Below are positions 2,536 through 48,454 of a stretch of DNA of 64,000 bases, one piece after another. The translations under genes and the position numbers were made by a program. This DNA is from Shigella phage ESh32. Location of the stretch: the sequence record ON528742. The stretch is one strand, 5' to 3'. The notes beneath the pieces were generated by a model. That model saw only the letters and a list, made by a program, of their open reading frames with translations, was not told where the DNA came from and ran no database searches. How positions within the stretch are numbered: position 1 is the stretch's first letter; every line of letters starts with the position of its first letter.

Positions 2536-3864
2536 ATGCAACTGAATAATCGCGATTTAAAAAGTATCATTGATAATGAAGCATTGGCTTATGCTATGTA
2601 CACGGTTGAAAATCGTGCTATCCCAAATATGATTGATGGATTTAAGCCAGTTCAACGATTTGTTATTGCTCGAGCTCTTGATTTGGCACGAGGAAATAAA
2701 GATAAGTTTCACAAACTCGCTTCTATCGCAGGTGGTGTAGCGGACCTTGGATATCATCATGGCGAAAACTCTGCACAAGACGCAGGTGCTTTGATGGCTA
2801 ACACTTGGAATAATAACTTTCCTCTGTTAGATGGTCAAGGAAACTTCGGTTCTCGTACCGTTCAAAAAGCAGCGGCAAGTCGTTATATTTTTGCTCGTGT
2901 AAGTAAAAATTTCTATAACGTATATAAAGATACTGAGTATGCTCCGGTACATCAAGATAAAGAACACATTCCGCCTGCTTTCTATTTGCCTATTATTCCT
3001 ACTGTTCTTCTTAATGGCGTTTCCGGTATTGCAACTGGTTATGCAACTTACATTCTTCCTCATAGCGTTTCTTCTGTTAAGAAAGCTGTATTACAAGCTC
3101 TTCAAGGAAAGAAAGTAACTAAACCGAAGGTAGAATTCCCAGAATTTCGTGGTGAAGTCGTTGAAATTGATGGGCAATATGAAATTCGTGGAACATATAA
3201 GTTTACTTCACGAACTCAAATGCATATCACTGAGATTCCGTATAAGTATGATCGTGAAACTTATGTGAGTAAAATCTTAGACCCACTTGAAGATAAAGGC
3301 TTCATTACATGGGATGATGCTTGTGGTGAGCACGGCTTCGGCTTTAAAGTTAAATTCCGTAAAGAATATTCTTTGAGCGATAACGAAGAAGAACGCCATG
3401 CAAAAATTATGAAAGACTTTGGGTTGATTGAGCGTCGTTCTCAGAATATTACCGTCATTAATGAGAAAGGAAAGCTACAAGTTTACGATAACGTAGTTGA
3501 TTTAATTAAAGATTTCGTTGAAGTTCGTAAAACTTATGTCCAAAAACGAATTGATAACAAAATTAAAGAAACTGAGTCAGCTTTTCGTTTAGCCTTTGCC
3601 AAGGCACATTTCATTAAGAAAGTAATTTCAGGTGAAATTGTTGTACAGGGTAAAACTCGTAAAGAACTGACCGAAGAACTTTCGAAAATCGATATGTATT
3701 CTTCTTATGTTGATAAATTAGTTGGAATGAATATTTTTCATATGACTTCCGACGAAGCAAAGAAACTTGCTGAAGAAGCTAAAGCTAAAAAAGAAGAAAA
3801 CGAATATTGGAAAACTACTGATGTAGTTACTGAATACACCAAAGATTTAGAGGAAATCAAATGA
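2536..3864 (+). CDS. 52: DNA topoisomerase II medium subunit gp52 (442 aa)
   Basis: MQLNNRDLKSIIDNEALAYAMYTVENRAIPNMIDGFKPVQR... is GyrA-like N-terminus with active-site region; matches T4 gp52. Confidence 0.95.
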   Translation: MQLNNRDLKSIIDNEALAYAMYTVENRAIPNMIDGFKPVQRFVIARALDLARGNKDKFHKLASIAGGVADLGYHHGENSAQDAGALMANTWNNNFPLLDGQGNFGSRTVQKAAASRYIFARVSKNFYNVYKDTEYAPVHQDKEHIPPAFYLPIIPTVLLNGVSGIATGYATYILPHSVSSVKKAVLQALQGKKVTKPKVEFPEFRGEVVEIDGQYEIRGTYKFTSRTQMHITEIPYKYDRETYVSKILDPLEDKGFITWDDACGEHGFGFKVKFRKEYSLSDNEEERHAKIMKDFGLIERRSQNITVINEKGKLQVYDNVVDLIKDFVEVRKTYVQKRIDNKIKETESAFRLAFAKAHFIKKVISGEIVVQGKTRKELTEELSKIDMYSSYVDKLVGMNIFHMTSDEAKKLAEEAKAKKEENEYWKTTDVVTEYTKDLEEIK

Positions 3865-4010
3865 GTCCATTCATTGGTATTACAAGCGCTGCATTAGTAT
3901 CTGGTAGCATTTTACTGGCGGGTTTAGGCGTTGTTCCAGCCGTAGCAGGAGGTCTTCTTGCGTTCGGAATTCAACGTGTTATCATGACAGTTATCACAGT
4001 CATGCAGTAA
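3861..4010 (+). CDS. small membrane protein (49 aa), ATGA-coupled to gene 52
   Basis: MSPFIGITSAALVSGSILLAGLGVVPAVAGGLLAFGIQRVIMTVITVMQ; followed directly by terminator. Confidence 0.4.
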   Translation: MSPFIGITSAALVSGSILLAGLGVVPAVAGGLLAFGIQRVIMTVITVMQ

Positions 4011-4015
4011 TTTTA

Positions 4016-4042
4016 GGGAGAGCCTCGGCTCTCCCTTTTTTA
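4016..4042 (+). terminator. rho-independent terminator (GGGAGAGCC-TCG-GGCTCTCCC + T6)
   Basis: Perfect 9-bp GC-rich stem, 3-nt loop, TTTTTT tail read directly. Confidence 0.65.
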
Positions 4043-4066
4043 TTTTAAAATTTTTTTCACAAAACG

Positions 4067-4096
4067 GTTTACAACCAAAGCATACTGTGGTACTAT
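4067..4096 (+). promoter_or_regulatory. T4-type early promoter for motA: -35 GTTTAC 4067-4072, -10 TACTAT 4091-4096
   Basis: Motif read directly; downstream leader TACAACTATCAACT shared with promoters at 439 and 21328. Confidence 0.55.
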
Positions 4097-4137
4097 ACAA
4101 CTATCAACTACTGATACAGAATTACGGAGATTAGAAA

Positions 4138-4773
4138 ATGTCTAAAGTAACTTACATCATCAAAGCTTCTAACGATGTTCTGAATGAAAAAACTGCTGCG
4201 ATTTTAATTACTATTGCTAAGAAAGATTTCATTACAGCTGCAGAAGTTCGTGAGGTGCATCCATATTTAGGTAACGCAGTAGTTAATAGTAATATTGGGG
4301 TATTGATTAAAAAAGGCCTGGTGGAGAAATCTGGTGATGGATTAATCATTACAGGTGAAGCTCAGGATATTATTTCAAATGCAGCAACTTTATACGCACA
4401 GGAAAATGCTCCGGAACTGCTGAAAAAACGAGCAACTCGTAAAGCTCGTGAGATTACTTCCGATATGGAAGAAGATAAAGACCTCATGTTAAAACTTTTA
4501 GATGAAAATGGATTTGTTCTTAAAAAGGTTGAAACTTACCGCAGTAACTATCTCGCTATTTTAGAAAAACGTACTCACGGAATTCGTAATTTTGAAATTA
4601 ACAACAATGGAAATATGCGAATTTTTGGATACAAAATGATGGAACATCATATTCAGAAATTTACTGATATCGGAATGTCATGTAAAATCGCTAAAAACGG
4701 TAATGTGTATCTTGACATTAAACGCTCGGCAGAAAACATTGAAGCTGTAATCACTGTAGCATCTGAACTGTGA
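4138..4773 (+). CDS. motA: middle-transcription activator MotA (211 aa)
   Basis: MSKVTYIIKASNDVLNEKTAAILITIAKKDF...; length 211 aa and position next to gene 52 match T4 MotA. Confidence 0.9.
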   Translation: MSKVTYIIKASNDVLNEKTAAILITIAKKDFITAAEVREVHPYLGNAVVNSNIGVLIKKGLVEKSGDGLIITGEAQDIISNAATLYAQENAPELLKKRATRKAREITSDMEEDKDLMLKLLDENGFVLKKVETYRSNYLAILEKRTHGIRNFEINNNGNMRIFGYKMMEHHIQKFTDIGMSCKIAKNGNVYLDIKRSAENIEAVITVASEL

Positions 4774-4783
4774 GGAATAAATA

Positions 4784-5113
4784 ATGAACAAGTTAGAAAT
4801 TGTTAATGAACTTCGTCGTTGCGCAGAACCTACTCAAGAGGGTTGGGATATTTGGTACCATGGAGCTTATCTTGGAACTATCGTAAAGATTAAGACTGGT
4901 AAATACATGATTATTCGTGAAAGTAAAGATGCTCCAGTAGGTATTCGCAATAATTTTATGGCAGCGATAAGTTCATTTACGGATGCAGCTTACGAAATTT
5001 ACCTTGCCGATTATAAAGAATTCCAGGAATCTCAACCAGTTATTCGTTCAATTGGTGTCAACAAAGCTCAGCAGAAAACTTTGTGGCAGCGTATTAAAGG
5101 ATGGTTTAAATGA
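4784..5113 (+). CDS. hypothetical early protein (109 aa; arn.4-position)
   Basis: ORF track; SD GAGGAATAAATA before ATG. Confidence 0.55.
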
Positions 5114-5571
5114 ACCCATTTATTAATCGTTTAAAAATGCTGAATGTGCCTTTATCTCGTGAGACTCCGGAGAGTCTTGTTCAAAAATTTAAAGCGCATG
5201 GTTATAAATGCACAGAAGAAGATATTCTGAAAGAAGTTCCTGAAATCTGTTGGCAGACTGCATACTGGGATGAAAATCAAAAGTATCAACGACGAATTGT
5301 CTGTGCAGCTAATCGTTTTAAATTAAAAGATGGACGAACTCTTATTATTCCAGGTGCTCGTCATTATTCTAAAGATATGGCAGAAGTTTTAGATGTAGTT
5401 AAACCTCAGTTAGTTACTCAACAAGTTTGTGATGATGACCAAGGGTTTATTGACCAATATAGTAATTATTGGACACGTGAAGAAGCAATGATTATTGCAA
5501 CTTATGCTGGGCAGGTGCGTATTGAACGTGGTGGTAGTGAAAAAGAACTTTACTCTGAGGACCTTTACTAA
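5110..5571 (+). CDS. hypothetical early protein (153 aa)
   Basis: ORF track; ATGA overlap with upstream ORF. Confidence 0.55.
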
Positions 5572-5867
5572 TGAATATTAAAAAGTTTCAAATTGATGGA
5601 ATTAAGAATCAAATCCAGGCGTTGGAATATGCCAATAAAATGATGTCAACTAATTGGGGAATTTATGCTAATGAGCCTGCATTTCAGTTTTGTGATATGG
5701 AATTAACTAAAAAGCTTGTAGGAAAAGATTATGTGTGTCCATTTAGTTCTCCAGTAAATGGAATGCTAAAACCTGCTTTACGCGATCTTTATATTGCGAT
5801 GAACGAAGAGATGATAAAAGAGATAAAACGTCAACTGAAGGTGATTCAATTTGGCCAGGGAAATTAA
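5571..5867 (+). CDS. hypothetical early protein (98 aa)
   Basis: ORF track; TAATG overlap with upstream ORF. Confidence 0.5.
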   Translation: MNIKKFQIDGIKNQIQALEYANKMMSTNWGIYANEPAFQFCDMELTKKLVGKDYVCPFSSPVNGMLKPALRDLYIAMNEEMIKEIKRQLKVIQFGQGN

Positions 5868-6069
5868 TTCAAAATCTGATTATTTTAATTCTCTCAATGA
5901 TAAAGATAAAAATCTAATACGGCATTTTATTGTTGAGATGGGATATACCGATACAAACGATTTAAGAGAACATATATTTGAATGTGGTGTAGCTAAAAAG
6001 TTTTCATTCACATGCAAATGTTTAAGAGAGGTAATTCAGCATTATGAACAATTTAGTCGCAAAACATAA
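5851..6069 (+). CDS. hypothetical small protein (72 aa if TTG start; in-frame ATG at 5938 gives 43 aa)
   Basis: Track ORF begins with TTG; true start uncertain. Confidence 0.35.
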   Translation: MAREINSKSDYFNSLNDKDKNLIRHFIVEMGYTDTNDLREHIFECGVAKKFSFTCKCLREVIQHYEQFSRKT

Positions 6070-6152
6070 TTTTAATAAAGCTTCTGTTCATAAGGATAAG
6101 AAGAAAGCGTTTAAAGAATCTAATCGCAAACAGAAACATAAGGGGAAGGTCT

Positions 6153-6431
6153 ATGATTATTGATTCTCAGTCCGTGGTTCAATACACAATCAAAATTGAT
6201 ATTCTAGAAAAGCTATATAAGTTTCTACCAAATTTATACCACTCAATTGTTAATGAATTAGTTGAAGAACTACATCTTGAGAATAATGATTTCTTGATTG
6301 GAACTTATAAAGACCTCTCAAAAGCAGGATATTTTTATGTAATTCCAGCTCCAGGAAAAAGTATTGATGATGTATTAAAAACTATAATGATTTACGTCCA
6401 TGATTACGAAATTGAAGATTATTTCGAATGA
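6153..6431 (+). CDS. arn: Arn, anti-restriction (anti-McrBC) DNA-mimic protein (92 aa)
   Basis: MIIDSQSVVQYTIKIDILEKLYKFLPNLYHS...; 92 aa, acidic; position upstream of asiA as in T4; SD AAGGGGAAGG. Confidence 0.75.
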   Translation: MIIDSQSVVQYTIKIDILEKLYKFLPNLYHSIVNELVEELHLENNDFLIGTYKDLSKAGYFYVIPAPGKSIDDVLKTIMIYVHDYEIEDYFE

Positions 6432-6589
6432 GTCATAATCTTGAAATGGTAATCGAGCATAATGTAGCTCAGGAACGTGAGTCGTTCAAGGAATTCGTAG
6501 AAAAAATTTTTGAAGAAAATAACACAGACCAGTTTACAAATCAAGCGTCTGATGATATTATAACAAAGTCAACTAATTGAGTGGTATAG
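6428..6589 (+). CDS. hypothetical small acidic protein (53 aa)
   Basis: ATG 6428 overlapping arn stop (ATGA); below track cutoff. Confidence 0.35.
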
Positions 6590-6592
6590 TTA

Positions 6593-6865
6593 ATGAATAA
6601 AAATATTGATACAGTTCGTGAAATTATTACTGTTGCGTCTATTTTGATTAAATTTTCCAGAGAAGATATTGTTGAGAATCGTGCTAATTTTATTGCATTT
6701 CTGAATGAGATTGGAGTAACGCATGAAGGTAGAAAATTAAATCAGAATTCATTCCGTAAAATTGTTTCTGAATTAACCCAAGAAGATAAGAAAACCCTCA
6801 TCGACGAATTCAACGAGGGTTTTGAGGGTGTATATCGATATCTAGAGATGTATACAAACAAATAA
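6593..6865 (+). CDS. asiA: anti-sigma70 factor AsiA (90 aa)
   Basis: MNKNIDTVREIITVASILIKFSREDIVENRANFIAFLNEIGV... recognised as T4 AsiA, 90 aa. Confidence 0.9.
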   Translation: MNKNIDTVREIITVASILIKFSREDIVENRANFIAFLNEIGVTHEGRKLNQNSFRKIVSELTQEDKKTLIDEFNEGFEGVYRYLEMYTNK

Positions 6866-7522
6866 TTATTTAGCCCTTCCTAATATTCTGGCCGCCTGAG
6901 AACATATTGATTCAAGGCGGTCATTACTTATATGATCATTTCTATACCAGTACATGGTTATTGTTCCAGCATAGATGTTATCCAAATTAAAATATGGACA
7001 ACTGTACATGTAGTTTATTTCGGGAGTAGGCTTTTTAGTTGGTAAAAAAGCAAATTTTGAGTTGGAATAATAATGACGTCCATTTAAATGAACTGTATAT
7101 TCATCCATAGTTTTATCAACAGGATATCCTCCAAGTGATTTTTCACTTATTGTTGAAGGTAATTTTCCTTCATATGCTATAATATCAACAAAATAGTTTA
7201 AGTTTTTAGGGCGGAAAGAATACACCGCACTAAAGTCTGCCTCAGATGATATGTGAACTATCTGGAGTTGTTCCAGGGCGACAGATTCAAAGCGTGCGTT
7301 TCTTTCCTTTTCAATAATTTCACTGTATGTTTCATACTTTGATTGCTTATAGTACTCAAAGAAACTATCTCCCCTATACCAAACAATCGCCATCATAAAT
7401 AAAAGAATTACGACAGCTACCCGGGAAGCAAGAACTTTCCCGGTAGCGTTATCTTTGAACAAGCGATCTAGAACACCAAATAGAATATCAGAGGGCGAAA
7501 ATGATATTCTAGGTGCTGCCAT
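6866..7522 (-). CDS. t: holin T (218 aa)
   Basis: 218 aa with N-terminal TM (VAVVILLFMMAIVWY) and large periplasmic domain; position 3' of gene 38, convergent with asiA as in T4. Confidence 0.9.
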   Translation of the reverse strand: MAAPRISFSPSDILFGVLDRLFKDNATGKVLASRVAVVILLFMMAIVWYRGDSFFEYYKQSKYETYSEIIEKERNARFESVALEQLQIVHISSEADFSAVYSFRPKNLNYFVDIIAYEGKLPSTISEKSLGGYPVDKTMDEYTVHLNGRHYYSNSKFAFLPTKKPTPEINYMYSCPYFNLDNIYAGTITMYWYRNDHISNDRLESICSQAARILGRAK

Positions 7523-40988: not shown

Positions 40989-41257
40989 TGTTTGTTGTTC
41001 ATACTATTTATGAAAATGAAGGTAATACTACACGTGATTACGGTCACGTAAATCAATTTTTTAGATGCAATCCAGAATTCCGAGCTCAAAAAGACGAACG
41101 AATTTTTAAAAAATGTGTAGAGCAAGGTTTCATTTACGTCAAGCACTGGATGCAAGGAAATAAAGTTAGAACCACGTACCACAAGTCTTTGACTGAGCTT
41201 AATGATGAATTGATTTATAATAGAGCTGTAAACCAAACTCTAAAGGATGAACAATGA
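40988..41257 (+). CDS. hypothetical protein (89 aa)
   Basis: ORF track; TAATG coupling. Confidence 0.5.
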   Translation: MFVVHTIYENEGNTTRDYGHVNQFFRCNPEFRAQKDERIFKKCVEQGFIYVKHWMQGNKVRTTYHKSLTELNDELIYNRAVNQTLKDEQ

Positions 41258-42717
41258 TTCTTAAAATTCTGAACGAAATAGCATCTATTGGTTCAACTAA
41301 GCAGAAGCAAGCAATTCTTGAAAAGAATAAAGATAATGAATTGCTTAAACGAGTATATCGTCTGACTTATTCTCGTGGGTTACAGTATTATATCAAGAAA
41401 TGGCCTAAACCTGGTATTGCTACCCAGAGTTTTGGAATGTTGACTCTTACCGATATGCTTGACTTCATTGAATTCACGTTAGCTACTCGGAAATTGACCG
41501 GAAATGCGGCAATTGAGGAATTAACTGGATATATTGCTGACGGTAAAAAAGATGATGTTGAAGTTTTGCGTCGGGTGATGATGCGAGACCTTGAATGCGG
41601 TGCTTCAGTATCTATTGCAAACAAAGTTTGGCCAGGTTTAATTCCTGAACAACCTCAAATGCTGGCAAGTTCTTATGATGAAAAGGGCATTAGTAAGAAT
41701 ATCAAATTTCCAGCCTTTGCACAGTTAAAAGCAGATGGAGCCCGGTGTTTTGCTGAAGTTAGAGGCGATGAATTAGATGATGTTCGTCTTTTATCACGAG
41801 CTGGTAATGAATATCTAGGATTAGATCTTCTTAAGGAAGAATTAATCAAAATGACTGCTGAAGCCCGCCAGATTCATCCAGAAGGTGTGTTAATTGATGG
41901 CGAATTGGTATACCATGAGCAAGTTGAAAAGGAACCAGAAGGCCTAGATTTTCTTTTTGATGCTTATCCTGAAATTAGTAAAGCTAAAGAATTCGCCGAA
42001 GTAGCTGAATCACGTACTACTTCTAATGGAATCGCTAATAAATCTTTAAAGGGAACCATTTCTGAAAAAGAAGCTCAATGCATGAAGTTTCAGGTCTGGG
42101 ATTATGTCCCGTTGGTAGAAATATACGGTCTTCCTGCATTTCGTTTGAAATATGATGTACGTTTTTCTAAACTAGAACAAATGACATCAGGTTATGATAA
42201 AGTAATTTTAATTGAAAACCAGGTAGTAAATAACCTAGATGAAGCTAAGGTAATTTATAAAAAGTATATTGACCAAGGTCTTGAAGGTATTATTCTCAAA
42301 AATATCGATGGATTATGGGAAAATGCTCGTTCAAAAAATCTTTATAAATTTAAAGAAGTAATTGATGTTGATTTAAAAATTGTAGGAATTTATCCTCACC
42401 GTAAAGACCCTACTAAAGCGGGTGGATTTATTCTTGAGTCAGAGTGTGGAAAAATTAAAGTAAATGCTGGTTCAGGCTTAAAAGATAAAGCTGGTGTAAA
42501 ATCGCATGAACTTGACCGTACTCGCATTATGGAAAACCAAAATTATTATATTGGAAAAATTCTAGAGTGCGAATGCAACGGTTGGTTAAAATCTGATGGC
42601 CGCACTGATTACGTTAAATTATTTCTTCCGATTGCGATTCGTTTACGTGAAGATAAAACTAAAGCTAATACATTCGAGGATGTATTTGGCGATTTTCATG
42701 AGGTAACTGGTTTATGA
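41254..42717 (+). CDS. 30: ATP-dependent DNA ligase gp30 (487 aa)
   Basis: MILKILNEIASIGSTKQKQAILEKNKDNELLKRVYRL...; adenylation motif KADGAR; 487 aa as T4 ligase. Confidence 0.95.
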   Translation: MILKILNEIASIGSTKQKQAILEKNKDNELLKRVYRLTYSRGLQYYIKKWPKPGIATQSFGMLTLTDMLDFIEFTLATRKLTGNAAIEELTGYIADGKKDDVEVLRRVMMRDLECGASVSIANKVWPGLIPEQPQMLASSYDEKGISKNIKFPAFAQLKADGARCFAEVRGDELDDVRLLSRAGNEYLGLDLLKEELIKMTAEARQIHPEGVLIDGELVYHEQVEKEPEGLDFLFDAYPEISKAKEFAEVAESRTTSNGIANKSLKGTISEKEAQCMKFQVWDYVPLVEIYGLPAFRLKYDVRFSKLEQMTSGYDKVILIENQVVNNLDEAKVIYKKYIDQGLEGIILKNIDGLWENARSKNLYKFKEVIDVDLKIVGIYPHRKDPTKAGGFILESECGKIKVNAGSGLKDKAGVKSHELDRTRIMENQNYYIGKILECECNGWLKSDGRTDYVKLFLPIAIRLREDKTKANTFEDVFGDFHEVTGL

Positions 42718-42902
42718 AAGCTTACTTAGAAACAATTGTCATTGCTCAAAAAGAAGGTGGAGATGTTTCTACTTCTGTATCACAAGTCATTCTCGAATTT
42801 GTAGATGCATATGCTTACAATAAATTTACAGAAACATTTGATGCCTATGAAAAAGGACCAAAGTTTGAAATATATCGTACTCTCTTACCACTAGATTACT
42901 AA
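42714..42902 (+). CDS. hypothetical protein (62 aa)
   Basis: ORF track; ATGA coupling to ligase. Confidence 0.45.
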   Translation: MKAYLETIVIAQKEGGDVSTSVSQVILEFVDAYAYNKFTETFDAYEKGPKFEIYRTLLPLDY

Positions 42903-42924
42903 AGGCCTTCGGGCCTTTAATTTT
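42901..42924 (+). terminator. possible terminator (AAAGGCC-UUCG-GGCCUUU + A/U-rich tail)
   Basis: 7-bp stem, UUCG loop; tail AATTTTA is not a clean U-run. Confidence 0.45.
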
Positions 42925-42954
42925 ATAAATAGAATAAACACTAGAGAGGCTATG

Positions 42955-45048
42955 ATGGAACTTATTACAGAATTATTTGACGAAGATACTACTCTTCCGA
43001 TTACAAACTTAAATCCAAAGAAGAAAATACCACAAATTTTTTCAGTTCATGTTGATGATGCAATTGAACAACCAGGCTTTCGTTTATGTACATATACATC
43101 TGGAGGTGATACTAATCGCGATTTAAAAATGGGCGACAAAATGATGCACATTGTTCCTTTTACATTAACTGCTAAAGGTTCAATTGCTAAATTAAAAGGT
43201 CTTGGTCCAAGCCCAATTAATTATATCAATTCAGTTTTTACTGTTGCAATGCAAACAATGCGTCAATATAAAATTGATGCTTGTATGCTTCGTATTCTTA
43301 AGTCTAAAACTGCTGGCCAAGCTCGACAAATTCAAGTTATTGCTGATAGACTTATCCGTAGTCGTTCAGGTGGCAGATACGTCCTTCTTAAGGAACTCTG
43401 GGATTACGATAAAAAGTATGCATATATTCTTATACATCGTAAAAATGTATCACTAGAAGACATTCCAGGAGTTCCAGAAATTAGCACCGAGCTCTTTACT
43501 AAAGTTGAATCGAAGGTCGGTGATGTTTATATCAATAAAGATACTGGAGCTCAAGTAACCAAAAATGAGGCAATTGCTGCATCTATTGCACAAGAAAATG
43601 ATAAACGTTCTGACCAAGCCGTAATCATTAAAGTTAAAATTTCCCGTAGAGCAATTGCACAAAGTCAGTCATTGGAATCTTCTAGATTTGAAAGTGAATT
43701 ATTCCAGAAGTATGAATCTACAGCAGCTAATTTTAATAAACCAGCTACTGCACCTTTAATTCCCGAAGCAGAAGAAATGAAAATTGGAATTAATTCATTA
43801 GCTTCTAAAACAAAGGCAGCAAAAATTATTGCTGAAGGAACGGCAGATGAACTTCACTATGATTATAAATTCTTTCCAATGAGTCAAGTCGGTGAAGTTT
43901 CAGAAAAAATTAAAGAAGTAATTTTTAATGCAATTAAAAATGAACCAACTACTTCAATAAAATGTTTAGAGAAATACGCAGCAGCTGTAAATCAATTCTT
44001 TGAAGATTATAAAGATAAATGGCTTGCTAATCATAATAAAAATCGTAAAGGACAACCAGATGAAGTCTGGGAAGAAATAACTAAAAATTCCTGGAACGCA
44101 GCAAAAACTAAATTCCTCAAACGAATGATTTACAGTTTTTCTGGAATTGGTGCTGGTCCAATGATTGATATTACTATTGCCCGCGATGGTTCTAAATATA
44201 CTCCATCACAAAAGCGTGGCATTAGAGAATATTGCGGTTCAGGATATACTGACATCAATAATCTTCTTTTAGGTCGTTACAATCCAGAACGATATGATGT
44301 AATGAGTGAAAAAGAAATTGAATCTGCTATAAATAACTTAGATTCAGCTTTTGAAAATGGTGACCGCATACCGGAAGGCATCACAGTTTATCGTGCTCAA
44401 AGTATGACTGCTCCTATATATGAAGCGTTAGTTAAAAATAAAGTGTTCTACTTCAGAAATTTTGTATCTACTTCTTTAACTCCTATCATTTTTGGACGTT
44501 TTGGAATCACACATGCTGGTATTGGTCTTTTAGAACCAGAAGCTCGCAATGAATTAACAGTTGATAAAAATGAAGAAGGAATAACTATTAATCCAAACGA
44601 AATAAGAGCGTATAAAGAAAATCCTGAATACGTTAAAGTTCAAATAGGATGGGCAATTGATGGAGCTCATAAAGTTAATGTTGTATATCCAGGAAGTCTC
44701 GGAATAGCAACAGAAGCTGAAGTTATTCTACCACGCGGATTGATGGTCAAAGTTAATAAAATAACTGATGCTTCTAATAATGACGGAACAACATCTAATA
44801 ATACAAAACTCATTCAAGCTGAAGTTATGACCACGGAAGAGCTCACCGAATCGGTAATCTATGACGGAGACCATTTAATGGAAACTGGTGAATTGGTTGC
44901 AATGACAGGTGATATTGAAATAGAAGACAGAGTTGACTTTGCATCATTTGTTTCATCAAATGTTAAACAGAAAGTAGAATCATCTCTTGGAATTATTGCG
45001 TCTTGCATAGATATTACAAACATGCCTTACAAGTTCGTTCAAGGATAA
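42955..45048 (+). CDS. alt: Alt-family ADP-ribosyltransferase, paralog 1 (697 aa), with N-terminal capsid-targeting sequence
   Basis: N-terminus MELITELFD...NLNPKKKIPQIF; C-terminal ART motifs Y-R (VYRAQ), STS (FVSTSL), ExE (EAEVILPRG); SD GAGAGG. Confidence 0.8.
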   Translation: MELITELFDEDTTLPITNLNPKKKIPQIFSVHVDDAIEQPGFRLCTYTSGGDTNRDLKMGDKMMHIVPFTLTAKGSIAKLKGLGPSPINYINSVFTVAMQTMRQYKIDACMLRILKSKTAGQARQIQVIADRLIRSRSGGRYVLLKELWDYDKKYAYILIHRKNVSLEDIPGVPEISTELFTKVESKVGDVYINKDTGAQVTKNEAIAASIAQENDKRSDQAVIIKVKISRRAIAQSQSLESSRFESELFQKYESTAANFNKPATAPLIPEAEEMKIGINSLASKTKAAKIIAEGTADELHYDYKFFPMSQVGEVSEKIKEVIFNAIKNEPTTSIKCLEKYAAAVNQFFEDYKDKWLANHNKNRKGQPDEVWEEITKNSWNAAKTKFLKRMIYSFSGIGAGPMIDITIARDGSKYTPSQKRGIREYCGSGYTDINNLLLGRYNPERYDVMSEKEIESAINNLDSAFENGDRIPEGITVYRAQSMTAPIYEALVKNKVFYFRNFVSTSLTPIIFGRFGITHAGIGLLEPEARNELTVDKNEEGITINPNEIRAYKENPEYVKVQIGWAIDGAHKVNVVYPGSLGIATEAEVILPRGLMVKVNKITDASNNDGTTSNNTKLIQAEVMTTEELTESVIYDGDHLMETGELVAMTGDIEIEDRVDFASFVSSNVKQKVESSLGIIASCIDITNMPYKFVQG

Positions 45049-45051
45049 ATC

Positions 45052-47109
45052 ATGGAACTTATTACAGAATTATTTGACGGCGCTTCGGCGCCGGTTGTTA
45101 ACTTAAATCCTAAGCATAAAATACCACAAATTTTTGCTATTCAAGCCGGTGAAGAAAGCGTGCTTCCTGGATTTAGATTTTGTACATACACCTCTGGCGG
45201 TGATACGAATAAAAACGTTAAGCCAGGCGACAAAATGATGCATATCGTAATGATAGGCGTCAACGAGAAATTATCGTTAGTTAAGCTTAAAAACTTGGGT
45301 GGAAATCCAATTGGCGTCATTAATGCGGTTTTTGATACTGCTCTTCAAACAATGAAACAGTATAAAATTGATGCATGCCTATTCCGCGTACTAAAAAGTA
45401 AAACAAACGGCGCTGCTCGTCAAATGCAAGTTATTGCTGACCGTTTAGTACGTACTAAAGGAGCAGGTCGATATGTTCTTTTAAAGGAAATCTGGGACTA
45501 TGATAAGAAATATGCATATATTATGGTTTACCGTAAAAATGCCAATTTAGAAGACATTCCAGGTGTACCTCCTATTTCAACTGAGTTATTCACAAAAGTT
45601 GAATCAAAGGTTGGTGATGTTTATGTAGACGTTAAAACAGGTAATGCTGTTCCTAAAGCTGTCGCAGTTGCTGCTTCTATTGCTTTAGAAAATGATAAGC
45701 GTACGGATCAAGCTGTTATTCAGAAAACTAAAATTAGCCGTCGATTAGCAGCACAAGCTCAATATTCTACTGTTGATGCTTCACTTCAGGGTGATAGCTT
45801 CGCTGCTAAGAAATATCAAGAGTTTGAATCTAAAGTTCCGGTATATAAAGCAGAAGGACCAATGAACTCTGGCGTTATTCAGATTGGTTCAAACTTCAGC
45901 AAAGGAGCTATCGGTGGTATGAGAAGTGCTTCTCGTTTTAAATCTAACGATTATGAACTAGAAAGCTTCCGAAATCATATTGCATTAGCCCATGCACGTT
46001 TACGTGATCCGTCTATCAGACTGCAGAGCGATATAACACATCAAGGTTCTCAAGAATATTTAAAGAATAAAGAATTCTTTGATTATAAAACCGATAAAAT
46101 TTTGAGCGATCTCGCTGACATTAATATTTCTAATAGCTTTGATGTTATTAAGAAAATTATCAATGATTTAGTTAAAGGTTCTAAAGCCGCACCAGACGAA
46201 AAGGTAGCTATTATTCAATTTGTCATGAATGGCATTTATAAATTGATTAATGAATCTGCTGCTCAGGCATATGAATACGCAAGCACCGAAGTAACTCCAA
46301 AAGGATTAACTCAGGCTGAGTCTGATGTAATTGAAGATTATTGTGCAGATTCATATGTTGAAATGAACTCGTTCCTTTTAGGTAAACCGGATTCTACCCG
46401 TGAAGAATACATGGAACGAGCTATTAAACACATCGAGACAATGGATTCTGCATTCGCCAAAGGATCAGTTCTTCCTCCGGGAACTACGCTTTATCGTGGT
46501 CAAGAAGTTACTTTTAAAACTTTACGCCATAATATTGAAAATAAAATGTTCTATTTCAAGAACTTCGTATCAACATCGCTTAAACCAAATATCTTCGGTG
46601 AGCATGGTAAAAACTATATGGCTCTAGATGATTCCGGTGCAGTATTTTCTGGTGAAGGAGAAGGTTCCGTTGATGCCGAAGATTTAATGCATATGGGTAG
46701 TCATTCTGCATATGCTAATGAAGATGCTGAAACTAGTGTAGGTATGGTAATTAAAGGGGCTGAGCGAATCAAAGTTATCGTTCCAGGTCATTTATCAGGA
46801 TTTCCATCAGAAGCTGAAGTTATTCTACCGCGTGGAATTTTGTTGAAGATTAATAAAGTAAGCACGTACATGATGAAAGAAACTGCTTATAACAAGTATC
46901 TAATCGAAGGCACAATCGTTCCTCCTTCTGAACAATTAGAAGAATCGGTATATGATGGCGACCATCTAATGGAAACTGGTGAAGTTCGTCCAATGGCTGG
47001 GTTTAATCAATTCCTTGTAGAAGAATCAAAAGAAGAGGAAAACGAAGTTTCTCAAATCTTGGCTTCTTTGGTTAACATCAACGGAATGTCTAAAAAGTTC
47101 AAGATGTAG
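45052..47109 (+). CDS. Alt-family ADP-ribosyltransferase, paralog 2 (685 aa)
   Basis: Same N-terminal targeting sequence and first ~230 aa closely similar to paralog 1; ART motifs LYRGQ, FVSTSL, EAEVILPRG intact; central/C-terminal regions diverged. Confidence 0.75.
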   Translation: MELITELFDGASAPVVNLNPKHKIPQIFAIQAGEESVLPGFRFCTYTSGGDTNKNVKPGDKMMHIVMIGVNEKLSLVKLKNLGGNPIGVINAVFDTALQTMKQYKIDACLFRVLKSKTNGAARQMQVIADRLVRTKGAGRYVLLKEIWDYDKKYAYIMVYRKNANLEDIPGVPPISTELFTKVESKVGDVYVDVKTGNAVPKAVAVAASIALENDKRTDQAVIQKTKISRRLAAQAQYSTVDASLQGDSFAAKKYQEFESKVPVYKAEGPMNSGVIQIGSNFSKGAIGGMRSASRFKSNDYELESFRNHIALAHARLRDPSIRLQSDITHQGSQEYLKNKEFFDYKTDKILSDLADINISNSFDVIKKIINDLVKGSKAAPDEKVAIIQFVMNGIYKLINESAAQAYEYASTEVTPKGLTQAESDVIEDYCADSYVEMNSFLLGKPDSTREEYMERAIKHIETMDSAFAKGSVLPPGTTLYRGQEVTFKTLRHNIENKMFYFKNFVSTSLKPNIFGEHGKNYMALDDSGAVFSGEGEGSVDAEDLMHMGSHSAYANEDAETSVGMVIKGAERIKVIVPGHLSGFPSEAEVILPRGILLKINKVSTYMMKETAYNKYLIEGTIVPPSEQLEESVYDGDHLMETGEVRPMAGFNQFLVEESKEEENEVSQILASLVNINGMSKKFKM

Positions 47110-47138
47110 TTTACAAGTCCCTCGTGTTGTGTTATAGT
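47109..47138 (+). promoter_or_regulatory. T4-type early promoter: -35 GTTTAC 47109-47114, -10 TATAGT 47133-47138
   Basis: Motif read directly; identical to alc promoter. Confidence 0.55.
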
Positions 47139-47162
47139 AGTCTTACTGACATAACATGAGGA
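47109..47162 (+). repeat. 54-bp promoter/leader cassette, copy B (identical to 31786-31839)
   Basis: Exact 54-nt identity with copy A, including -35 GTTTAC and -10 TATAGT and SD GAGGA. Confidence 0.8.
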
Positions 47163-47169
47163 ACGCAAA

Positions 47170-47460
47170 ATGAAATCTTCTTTACGCTTTTTAGGTCAAG
47201 AACTTGTAGTTGAAGGCGTTATTCCTGCTGATAACGCTTTTAATGAAGCAGTTTACGATGAATTTATCAAAATTTTTGGAACAGATAAAAAGTTCGGAAT
47301 TTTTCCTTCTGAAAATTTTTCAAAGCCAGAGCAGACTGAAAGCATTTTCCAAGGTGTAGTAACAGGTAAATTTGAGTCAGAAGCTCCGGTAAAAATTGAA
47401 GTTTATATTGAAGACAGTTTAGTTGCTTCAGTTGCTGCTTTTATTTCATTCCGTAAATAA
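47170..47460 (+). CDS. hypothetical protein (96 aa)
   Basis: ORF track; driven by duplicated promoter cassette. Confidence 0.5.
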   Translation: MKSSLRFLGQELVVEGVIPADNAFNEAVYDEFIKIFGTDKKFGIFPSENFSKPEQTESIFQGVVTGKFESEAPVKIEVYIEDSLVASVAAFISFRK

Positions 47461-47466
47461 AAATAT

Positions 47467-47484
47467 GGGGACCTTTCGGTCCCC
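47467..47484. terminator. hairpin/terminator between convergent genes (GGGGACC-UUUC-GGUCCCC)
   Basis: Perfect 7-bp stem located between the + strand 96-aa ORF and minus-strand gene 54. Confidence 0.5.
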
Positions 47485-47488
47485 ATTG

Positions 47489-48454
47489 TTATATTGCTCC
47501 TAATATTTTACTTTGCGAATTGACAATTCCCGTCATAGTATTAATGTTTGAAATGCTTCCAGCAGTTCCACCTAATCTACTAAGTCGTGAAAGCGAATTA
47601 GATAATCCAGTAACACCTCCACTATTTCCGAGAACGCTTTGAATGCCATTTATAGCAGCAGATTCAAGCCACTCAAGCGCAGCTTGTCTATCAACTGCTC
47701 CAGCCTGCATGACTCTATACGCAAAAGTAACATCAAACGTAGTTATTTGGTTATCTCCATCATATGATAACTCAGGAGCGCTCACTGACATTGGAATGCA
47801 TCCGGTGAACATCACTGCAGTATGAGGTAATCCATTACGAGCATGAAGATTAACCTGAATATCTGCCTCGACATCTTGTGGCAAAGCACGCAGTCCAGTT
47901 ACTGGGTCTTGAACAGCGTTAACCCAGTCTTGCATTGCACGATAGTTACAAGCTTCTGAATCCATTCTAAATGAAATAACCAAAGGGTCTAATTCTCTCC
48001 CAGTTATACGAATATTAGGAGAGTTATAGTTCCAGTCAGTTTCATAGGATAATCTATTCTCTGGCATTTTTACAGAATATATCATCAATCCAGATGAGTT
48101 ATATGCCATGTTAAAGAAGTCAATTAAATATGTACCAACTGTAAATGAACCTAATAAACTTTGAACTGTGCGTTGACTCATTGCACCAATAAGATATTTA
48201 CTAACCCCTGATTTTCTTATCAGTTTTTGTGTACCAGCAGTAATTAGCGTGGTAATTCCCTGATTAATATCGCCTTGAGTCAATCCTAACCAGTCTGAAT
48301 TTAGCCCCAAGTTGTTATAAGCAAAGTTACTAATTGAGCTTATTAATGATGAGCTTTTAGTTGATGGAGTAGTGGCAAAAACGCAGCTAAACATATTATT
48401 ACGTTGGAAGTCTGCGTTTATTGCTTGGTTATTAAATTCCTCTAAAGAATACAT
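47489..48454 (-). CDS. 54: baseplate tail-tube initiator gp54 (321 aa)
   Basis: MYSLEEFNNQAINADFQRNNMFSCVFATTPSTKSS...; size and synteny 54-48-29. Confidence 0.9.
   Translation of the reverse strand: MYSLEEFNNQAINADFQRNNMFSCVFATTPSTKSSSLISSISNFAYNNLGLNSDWLGLTQGDINQGITTLITAGTQKLIRKSGVSKYLIGAMSQRTVQSLLGSFTVGTYLIDFFNMAYNSSGLMIYSVKMPENRLSYETDWNYNSPNIRITGRELDPLVISFRMDSEACNYRAMQDWVNAVQDPVTGLRALPQDVEADIQVNLHARNGLPHTAVMFTGCIPMSVSAPELSYDGDNQITTFDVTFAYRVMQAGAVDRQAALEWLESAAINGIQSVLGNSGGVTGLSNSLSRLSRLGGTAGSISNINTMTGIVNSQSKILGAI

Follow-up and report, generated by a model that had tools for sequence, protein, structure and literature searches.

The DNA of Shigella phage ESh32 (sequence record ON528742; the 64,000-nucleotide stretch that was analysed is called the window) carries two adjacent genes for relatives of Alt, the ADP-ribosyltransferase (ART) of phage T4. 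We term them copy 1 (altA-type) and copy 2 (altB-type); their coordinates and lengths of 697 and 685 residues are those reported in an earlier note made from the sequence alone. The window is a Tequatrovirus segment, and its part from 42700 to 47500 is 98.1% identical to phage wV7 and matched by 541 phage records. The pair sits between gene 30/alt.1 and alt.-3/gene 54, i.e. in the Alt slot of the Tevenvirinae, and the same gene order was found in T2, T6, Dhakavirus MN04, Dhakavirus JS10 and a divergent metagenomic relative, L003. For copy 1 the listing of open reading frames (ORFs) gives an ATG at 42952 (698 residues); a second ATG at 42955 encodes MELITE... The product of 697 residues is preferred because a start at ATG 42955 agrees with T4 Alt and leaves a spacing of 5 nt to a GAGAGG Shine-Dalgarno sequence. 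The start codon of copy 2 lies 3 nt after the stop codon of copy 1, and its AAGGA Shine-Dalgarno sequence is within the 3' end of copy 1.

Both proteins were recognized by Pfam PF03496 (ADPrib_exo_Tox), copy 1 with E 9.8e-38 over residues 378-627 and copy 2 with E 3.7e-20 over residues 416-620, in either case far above the gathering score of 23.4 bits. The profile phrog_802 ('Alt-like RNA polymerase ADP-ribosyltransferase', 674 positions) covered residues 1-696 of copy 1 (E 6e-273) and 1-685 of copy 2 (E 1e-255). Close homologues of both copies carry precomputed PF26846 (Tevenvirinae_ADPRT) and PF03496 assignments; no NCBIfam model matches either protein. The first 240 residues of copy 2 were then searched against 1.84 billion representative proteins, and 60 long relatives were taken for a family alignment. 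The columns of R482, S507/S509 and E587/E589 (copy 2 numbering) are conserved in at least 58 of the 60, and the residues are present in both copies. In copy 1 the Arg and the ExE align with those of CdtA/iota toxin. The earlier assignment of both copies to the Alt family, with the Y-R, STS and ExE motifs kept, was thus borne out, and on alignment neither copy lacks a catalytic residue. An AlphaFold (AF2) model of copy 2 had a pLDDT (predicted local distance difference test) of 80.6, and residues 519-553, between the STS and ExE motifs, formed a variable insert of low confidence. In a Foldseek comparison with the PDB the C-terminal domain of this model retrieved Vis, C3bot, Certhrax, CDTa and VIP2 (E 1e-6 to 1e-4, target template modelling (TM) score 0.6-0.67). 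In R-S-E toxins the E-x-E form predicts arginine specificity. Judged by sequence, both genes code for Alt-family R-S-E ADP-ribosyltransferases with complete catalytic motifs, and activity is predicted for both.

The two copies align end to end with 41% identity (E 5e-158). Residues 1-238, the N-module, are ~68% identical, in agreement with the closely similar N-terminal part which had been noted for the tandem paralogues. The central linkers, residues ~240-424, are essentially unalignable (12-20% identity); the ART domains are 35% and the C-tails ~46% identical. The earlier note had described the central and C-terminal regions alike as diverged. This holds for the centre, whereas the C-terminus keeps a conserved block, L-x-E followed by SV(I)YDGDHLMETGE. 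At the other end the first 27 nt are identical between the paralogues. In the L003 pair (2873-4969 and 5001-7100) the first 25 residues are identical and the first 60 nt 90% identical. The very 5' end, which encodes the propeptide removed by the prohead protease gp21, may thus be under constraint or subject to short conversion tracts.

Table 1. Features of the Alt locus in the window.
Feature	Position	Strand	Remark
DNA ligase, gene 30	41254-42717		
alt.1 homologue (PF24647 'Phage blade protein', E 2e-29)	42714-42902	+	
Terminator-like hairpin AAAGGCC-TTCG-GGCCTTT, then T-run	42900-42919	+	closes early gene 30/alt.1 unit
T4-type late promoter box TATAAATA	42924-42931	+	24 nt upstream of copy 1 start codon
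Copy 1, alt (altA-type), 697 residues, T2/T6/wV7-type allele	42955-45048	+	positional counterpart of T4 alt
Copy 1 N-terminal module, residues 1-238	42955-43668	+	includes predicted gp21 site I-T-E6
Copy 1 variable cassette (helical linker and ART domain)	43675-44744	+	40-70% nucleotide, 14-72% amino acid identity to T4 alt
Copy 1 ART island	44149-44868	+	82-97% nucleotide identity to Dhakavirus JS10 alta; flanks at background
Copy 1 catalytic motifs Y479-R480, F-V-S505-T506-S507-L, E587-A-E589-VILPRG	44389-44739	+	
Copy 1 C-terminal predicted gp21 site L-T-E632, followed by S, and YDGDHLMETGE block	44842-44892	+	aligned to T4 LTE-619
Copy 2, altB-type Alt paralogue, 685 residues	45052-47109	+	intact version of T4 pseudogenes alt.-1/alt.-2
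Copy 2 N-terminal module, residues 1-238, alpha/beta domain	45052-45765	+	predicted gp21 site I-T-E6
9-bp direct repeat CTAAAAAGT, first copy	45391-45399	+	left end of T4 deletion
Copy 2 catalytic motifs Y481-R482, F-V-S507-T508-S509-L, E587-A-E589-VILPRG	46492-46836	+	
Copy 2 C-terminal gp21-type site L-E-E631, followed by S, and YDGDHLMETGE block	46936-46983	+	E631 conserved in 59/60
9-bp direct repeat CTAAAAAGT, second copy	47090-47098	+	right end of T4 deletion
Sigma-70/T4-early-like promoter, TTTACA-17-TATAGT, TG-extended	47110-47138	+	ahead of alt.-3
alt.-3 homologue (DUF5498, 96 residues)	47170-47460	+	last gene of cluster
Bidirectional terminator hairpin	47465-47486		next strong hairpin 3' of the pair, between alt.-3 and convergent gene 54
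Genes 54, 48, 29	47489 onward		convergent

Which of the two copies corresponds to T4 alt had been left open in the earlier note. In T4, alt occupies the upstream slot and is followed by two short ORFs, alt.-1 and alt.-2. By slot and flanks, copy 1 is the counterpart of T4 alt; copy 2 corresponds to alt.-1/alt.-2. The copy 1 protein is 99.9% identical to that of wV7, 97.4% to Alt of T2 and T6 and 70.7% to T4 Alt. Compared with T4 alt, its 5' part (42955-43674) is 96-99% identical at the nucleotide level, with 99% amino acid identity in the N-module, and its 3' part (44745-45048) is 81-99% identical, with 93-97% over the last ~80 residues. In the variable cassette that lies between them, 43762-44190 has no detectable DNA match in T4 alt. 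The ART domain of copy 1 is 64% identical to that of T4, that of copy 2 37%. Copy 1 thus takes the place of T4 alt, but by these identities it is a mosaic allele and no simple orthologue. Nor are both copies of the pair exact orthologues of characterized T4 genes.

With 42% identity to T4 Alt, copy 2 is not a strict orthologue of alt. Over the first ~350 nt, however, it is ~96% identical to the alt.-1/alt.-2 segment of T4. Two small families of 61 and 67 positions, phrog_23015 and phrog_15247, which we take to be the alt.-1/alt.-2 ORF families, matched copy 2 at 2e-40 and 3e-38, far better than copy 1. The 9-bp repeat CTAAAAAGT is present twice in the intact gene. In T4 a single CTAAAAAGT stands exactly at the junction, the intervening 1,699 bp are missing, and there is a 1-nt frameshift in addition. 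This indicated that T4 lost most of a complete second gene by a deletion between short direct repeats. Copy 2 is, to judge from this comparison, the intact form of the T4 pseudogene alt.-1/alt.-2. According to the T4 record, alt.-1/alt.-2 go back to an old duplication that covered only the beginning of alt; the deletion refines this description in that a second gene once complete was largely lost. In the records of T6 (MH550421, L009 3302-5359) and T2 (MH751506, L010 2744-4801) the intact second Alt gene bears the label 'hypothetical protein'; the accompanying note reads 'apparent insertion in alt.-2' in T6 and 'alt.-1' in T2. Because the repeat-flanked junction shows the T4 state to be the deletion, the polarity in these notes is the wrong way round.

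The stretch of copy 2 which is missing from T4 was found in 401 phage records at 90-99% nucleotide identity, T2 and T6 included. At a level of at least 95%, 396 records match copy 2, and the sampled rows have an intact 685-residue ORF with 97.8-99.9% amino acid identity; the identity to the T2 and T6 proteins is 98%. The cassette type of copy 1 is present in 330 phage records and the T4-like cassette in ~212 (60-80% identity band). All four combinations of cassette type and copy 2 occur, e.g. a T4-type alt with copy 2 in SHFML-26 and a wV7-type alt without intact copy 2 in FJ1. In RB32 the second gene goes under the name alt.-2. Other genera with annotated tandem pairs are Dhakavirus (MN04; JS10 as alta/altb), Gaprivervirus and Biquartavirus. 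In Krischvirus PHB13 a truncated Alt-annotated ORF of 274 residues (L006 5541-6365) follows a full-length alt, which suggests an independent decay of the second copy. In Biquartavirus SW69-9 an extra hypothetical ORF of 319 residues (L007 558-1517) lies just upstream of the Alt pair. Duplications of alt in T4-like phages have already been described by Nolan et al. 2006 (PMC1524935). The tandem Alt pair is known and widely annotated and is no discovery.

New, if incremental, are the way in which the segments of the two genes group and the transfer of the copy 1 cassette between genera. Here we compared the pairs of the window, of L003 and of MN04. The L003 ligase is 68% identical to that of the window at the protein level, and the nearest relatives of L003 are Salmonella phage KM16 and Citrobacter phages. 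The ART domains of the three lineages clustered by slot (same-slot 52-59% vs cross-slot 34-37% identity, bootstrap 1.00), and the linkers also followed the slot. In contrast, the N-modules clustered by genome (within-genome 65-78% vs same-slot 46-63%, bootstrap 1.00). Slot-wise grouping of the ART domains in all three lineages makes the duplication an old one. The simplest reading of the sequences would be one duplication older than the three lineages, followed by maintenance of two enzyme types while the N-modules evolved in concert.

Between the window and JS10 the background identity is 61-66% at the nucleotide level (ligase, gp54, alt.-3). The ART island of copy 1 stands far above this level (Table 1), whereas copy 2 and JS10 altb are 45-68% identical along their whole length. 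These values certainly point to the transfer of an ART cassette between genera in the upstream slot. The earlier interpretation, duplication followed by diversification, therefore needs revision: the duplication is old, and cassette exchange between genera and gene loss in T4 have to be added.

A different history would have each lineage duplicate its gene independently and recently and then import A- and B-type linker/ART cassettes from a shared pool, so that no single ancient duplication existed. The grouping of the N-modules by genome and the direct evidence of cassette transfer in the upstream slot are in its favour. So is the outcome of a search for gene conversion between the paralogous N-modules in five genomes: no long identical tracts were detected (the longest were 23-29 nt), and recent gene conversion is thus not demonstrated. 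However, in the window, L003, MN04 and JS10 alike the first gene is of the A-type and the second of the B-type, the linkers cluster by slot as the ART domains do, and copy 2 remains at background against JS10 altb throughout, as vertical descent predicts. Moreover, the paralogous N-modules are 63-71% identical at the nucleotide level within a genome, so none of the duplications is recent. We regard such a history as a live but less probable alternative and prefer the single old duplication.

Next to the ART domains, the ends of the proteins carry information. In T4 Alt, gp21 cleaves at ITE-6 and LTE-619 and so removes 6 and 63 residues (mass spectrometry, PMC5694885; reviewed PMC9026906). I-T-E is present at residues 4-6 in both window proteins, and E6 is conserved in 57 of the 60 family members; the C-terminal counterparts are listed in Table 1. 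The earlier note had termed the common N-terminus capsid-targeting. That the N-module is shared was correct. The known gp21 propeptide in T4 Alt, however, comprises the first 6 residues only (PMC5694885), and a conserved C-terminal propeptide is also common to both copies.

The search with the N-module retrieved only 69 relatives, almost all of 600-712 residues. The possibility that it is a general delivery adaptor fused to other effectors was rejected on sequence grounds, as 58 of the 60 scanned relatives carry an ART domain. When the model of residues 1-240 of copy 2 (45052-45771) was compared with predicted viral structures using Foldseek, weak matches outside the Alt family were obtained (E 1e-7 to 1e-4, query TM 0.4-0.55, 9-16% identity). 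These are large uncharacterised proteins of the unrelated myoviruses Erwinia phiEa2809, Dickeya RC-2014, Vibrio VP-1 and Kuja, Shigella MK-13 and Agrobacterium Atu_ph07; on some of them zeta-toxin, deaminase or ParB domains are annotated. Possibly they share a wider delivery-module fold, as the models may indicate.

The homologue of alt.1 overlaps the ligase stop codon, and directly 3' of it lies a pair of terminator and late promoter box. A conserved terminator upstream of alt was noted by Nolan 2006 (PMC1524935), and T4 alt is a late gene (PMC9697503). A scan for hairpins and promoters found no promoter or terminator between copy 1 and copy 2. From this layout we infer that both are co-transcribed from the late promoter. 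A second exact TATAAATA is located inside copy 1 at 44328-44335 (+ strand), just upstream of the ART-coding part; it may be due to chance or may be an internal late promoter. The promoter sequence ahead of alt.-3 is also kept in T4, just beyond the deletion junction. Of the product of this neighbouring gene it has been reported that C-terminal extension mutants of T4 Alt.-3 escape the mRNA-ADP-ribosylating defence system CmdTAC (PMC11618068).

We propose that the locus is a late-transcribed cassette of two genes, altA then altB, of T2/T6/wV7-type Tequatrovirus. Each protein consists of a conserved N-module of ~238 residues, a helical linker, a C3/VIP2-like mono-ADP-ribosyltransferase domain of predicted arginine specificity and a C-tail. 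By analogy with T4 Alt, both proteins would be made late and then be built into the prohead core. gp21 would trim both after I-T-E6 and after L-x-E at ~631. The trimmed proteins would stay in the filled head and be ejected with the DNA, and at the very start of infection both enzymes would ADP-ribosylate arginines of host proteins using host NAD+. That both are late-made, gp21-processed, head-packaged and injected arginine ADP-ribosyltransferases is, by this analogy, quite probable. Beyond sequence, fold and evolutionary pattern the proposal is modelled on T4 Alt throughout.

Several points weigh against this proposal. T4 does without copy 2, and T4 alt is itself non-essential (PMC9026906); any function would therefore be conditional. 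By sequence, copy 2 had no match among PDB chains at E up to 1; its fold was assigned from the AF2 model and Foldseek instead. Over the whole window the motif TATAAATA was found 12 times with 9.5 expected, i.e. not above chance, so the call of a late promoter at 42924 relies on its position and on the T4 precedent. The slot-wise orthology could not be extended to the pairs of Gaprivervirus P896 or Biquartavirus SW69-9, as identities are ~30-44% in all comparisons. Neither a functional nor a proteomic study of the second paralogue turned up in the literature searched, nor any direct evidence of its translation, packaging, cleavage, injection or enzymatic activity.

Do the two enzymes act on the same host proteins? 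The ART domains have drifted to 35% identity, the linkers can no longer be aligned, and in all three lineages each type has stayed in its own slot; different host target sets are therefore most likely. On these sequence data we lean towards two enzymes which differ in their targets. A redundant pair would be the alternative, in which copy 2 shares virtually all its targets with copy 1, RNA polymerase alpha among them, and raises the injected dose or serves as a backup. The copies do have the same architecture, the same ExE motif class and the same processing sites, and T4 is viable with one gene. Overlapping targets are plausible, too, as T4 Alt reportedly acts on many host proteins (PMC5512222, citing Depping 2005). 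Yet a mere increase in dose hardly agrees with the low identity of ART domains and linkers. Both ART types are slot-conserved in three lineages that share 61-69% identity in ligase and gp54, and this fits long-term retention of two functions. In addition, variability is greatest in the segment from the STS to the ExE motif, a region that contributes to substrate recognition in C3-like toxins. Overall, a redundant pair appears unlikely. That copy 2 is decaying or not packaged, i.e. an intracellular late enzyme or a pseudo-enzyme heading to the T4 state, is very improbable: T4 and roughly a quarter of the Tequatrovirus records are without it, the second copy of PHB13 is truncated and proteomic evidence was not found in the literature, yet the ORF is intact in the sampled rows and matched in hundreds of records, all catalytic and both processing-site residues are kept, the gene belongs to the same presumed late transcription unit as copy 1, and its AF2 model is confidently folded.

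Our knowledge of injected phage ADP-ribosyltransferases comes almost entirely from T4, and T4 is atypical here, with a different catalytic cassette in alt and a mere remnant of the second gene. Taken further, most T-even phages, T2 and T6 included, might inject two different arginine ADP-ribosyltransferases on a shared delivery chassis. altB would have its own targets or a role in counter-defence and would have been missed because T4 deleted it, and the upstream slot would be an exchangeable cassette that moves between genera like polymorphic toxins. We hold this wider view tentatively, as a possibility with slightly less than even chances. Cassette exchange hints that target range is under selection, as one would expect of a gene in host conflict. 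If the second enzyme has targets of its own, the earliest host takeover by most T-even phages, among them many therapeutic candidates, involves an uncharacterised effector. If the injection of two enzymes is true, the weak structural matches of the N-module would hint at a head-delivery domain of wider distribution that has gone unrecognised. Both genes are present in T2 and T6 with 97-98% identity to the window, and the question can be tested in standard laboratory phages.

Among known systems the closest relation is to T4 Alt (gpalt, NP_049811), a head-packaged, injected arginine mono-ADP-ribosyltransferase. Copy 1 resembles it in slot (alt.1/alt/.../alt.-3/54), N-module, tail, motifs and gp21 sites; copy 2 has the same architecture and no intact counterpart in T4. 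ADP-ribosylation of Arg265 of RNA polymerase alpha ('alteration') is known for T4 Alt only; the toxin-antitoxin system MazEF is also among its reported targets. As the linker and ART domain of copy 1 have diverged from T4 Alt, the T4 target data may not transfer. With T4 alt.-1/alt.-2 (NP_049810, NP_049809) copy 2 shares the 5' end, whereas the gene in the window is full length and intact. T2, T6 and wV7 have an identical layout with 97-99.9% amino acid identity for both genes and show essentially no difference. In JS10, alta and altb fill the two slots likewise; the ART island of copy 1 apart, their identity to the window genes lies at the background level. The MuF-fused ARTs and polyvalent head-packaged effectors (Iyer et al. 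2017, PMC5512222; PMC9503650) embody the same concept, an effector domain that travels with the DNA by virtue of a linked head-association module; in the window proteins the effector is not fused to MuF or another known head-association domain. Finally, the catalytic fold with R/S-T-S/E-x-E is common to the phage enzymes and the C3-like, VIP2, iota-Ia and CDTa toxins (PF03496). In place of the secretion signals or binary-toxin adaptors of the C3/VIP2-type toxins, the phage enzymes have the phage-specific N-module (PF26846) and predicted gp21-cleaved propeptides, so that delivery is different, and they differ further by their long variable insert between STS and ExE.

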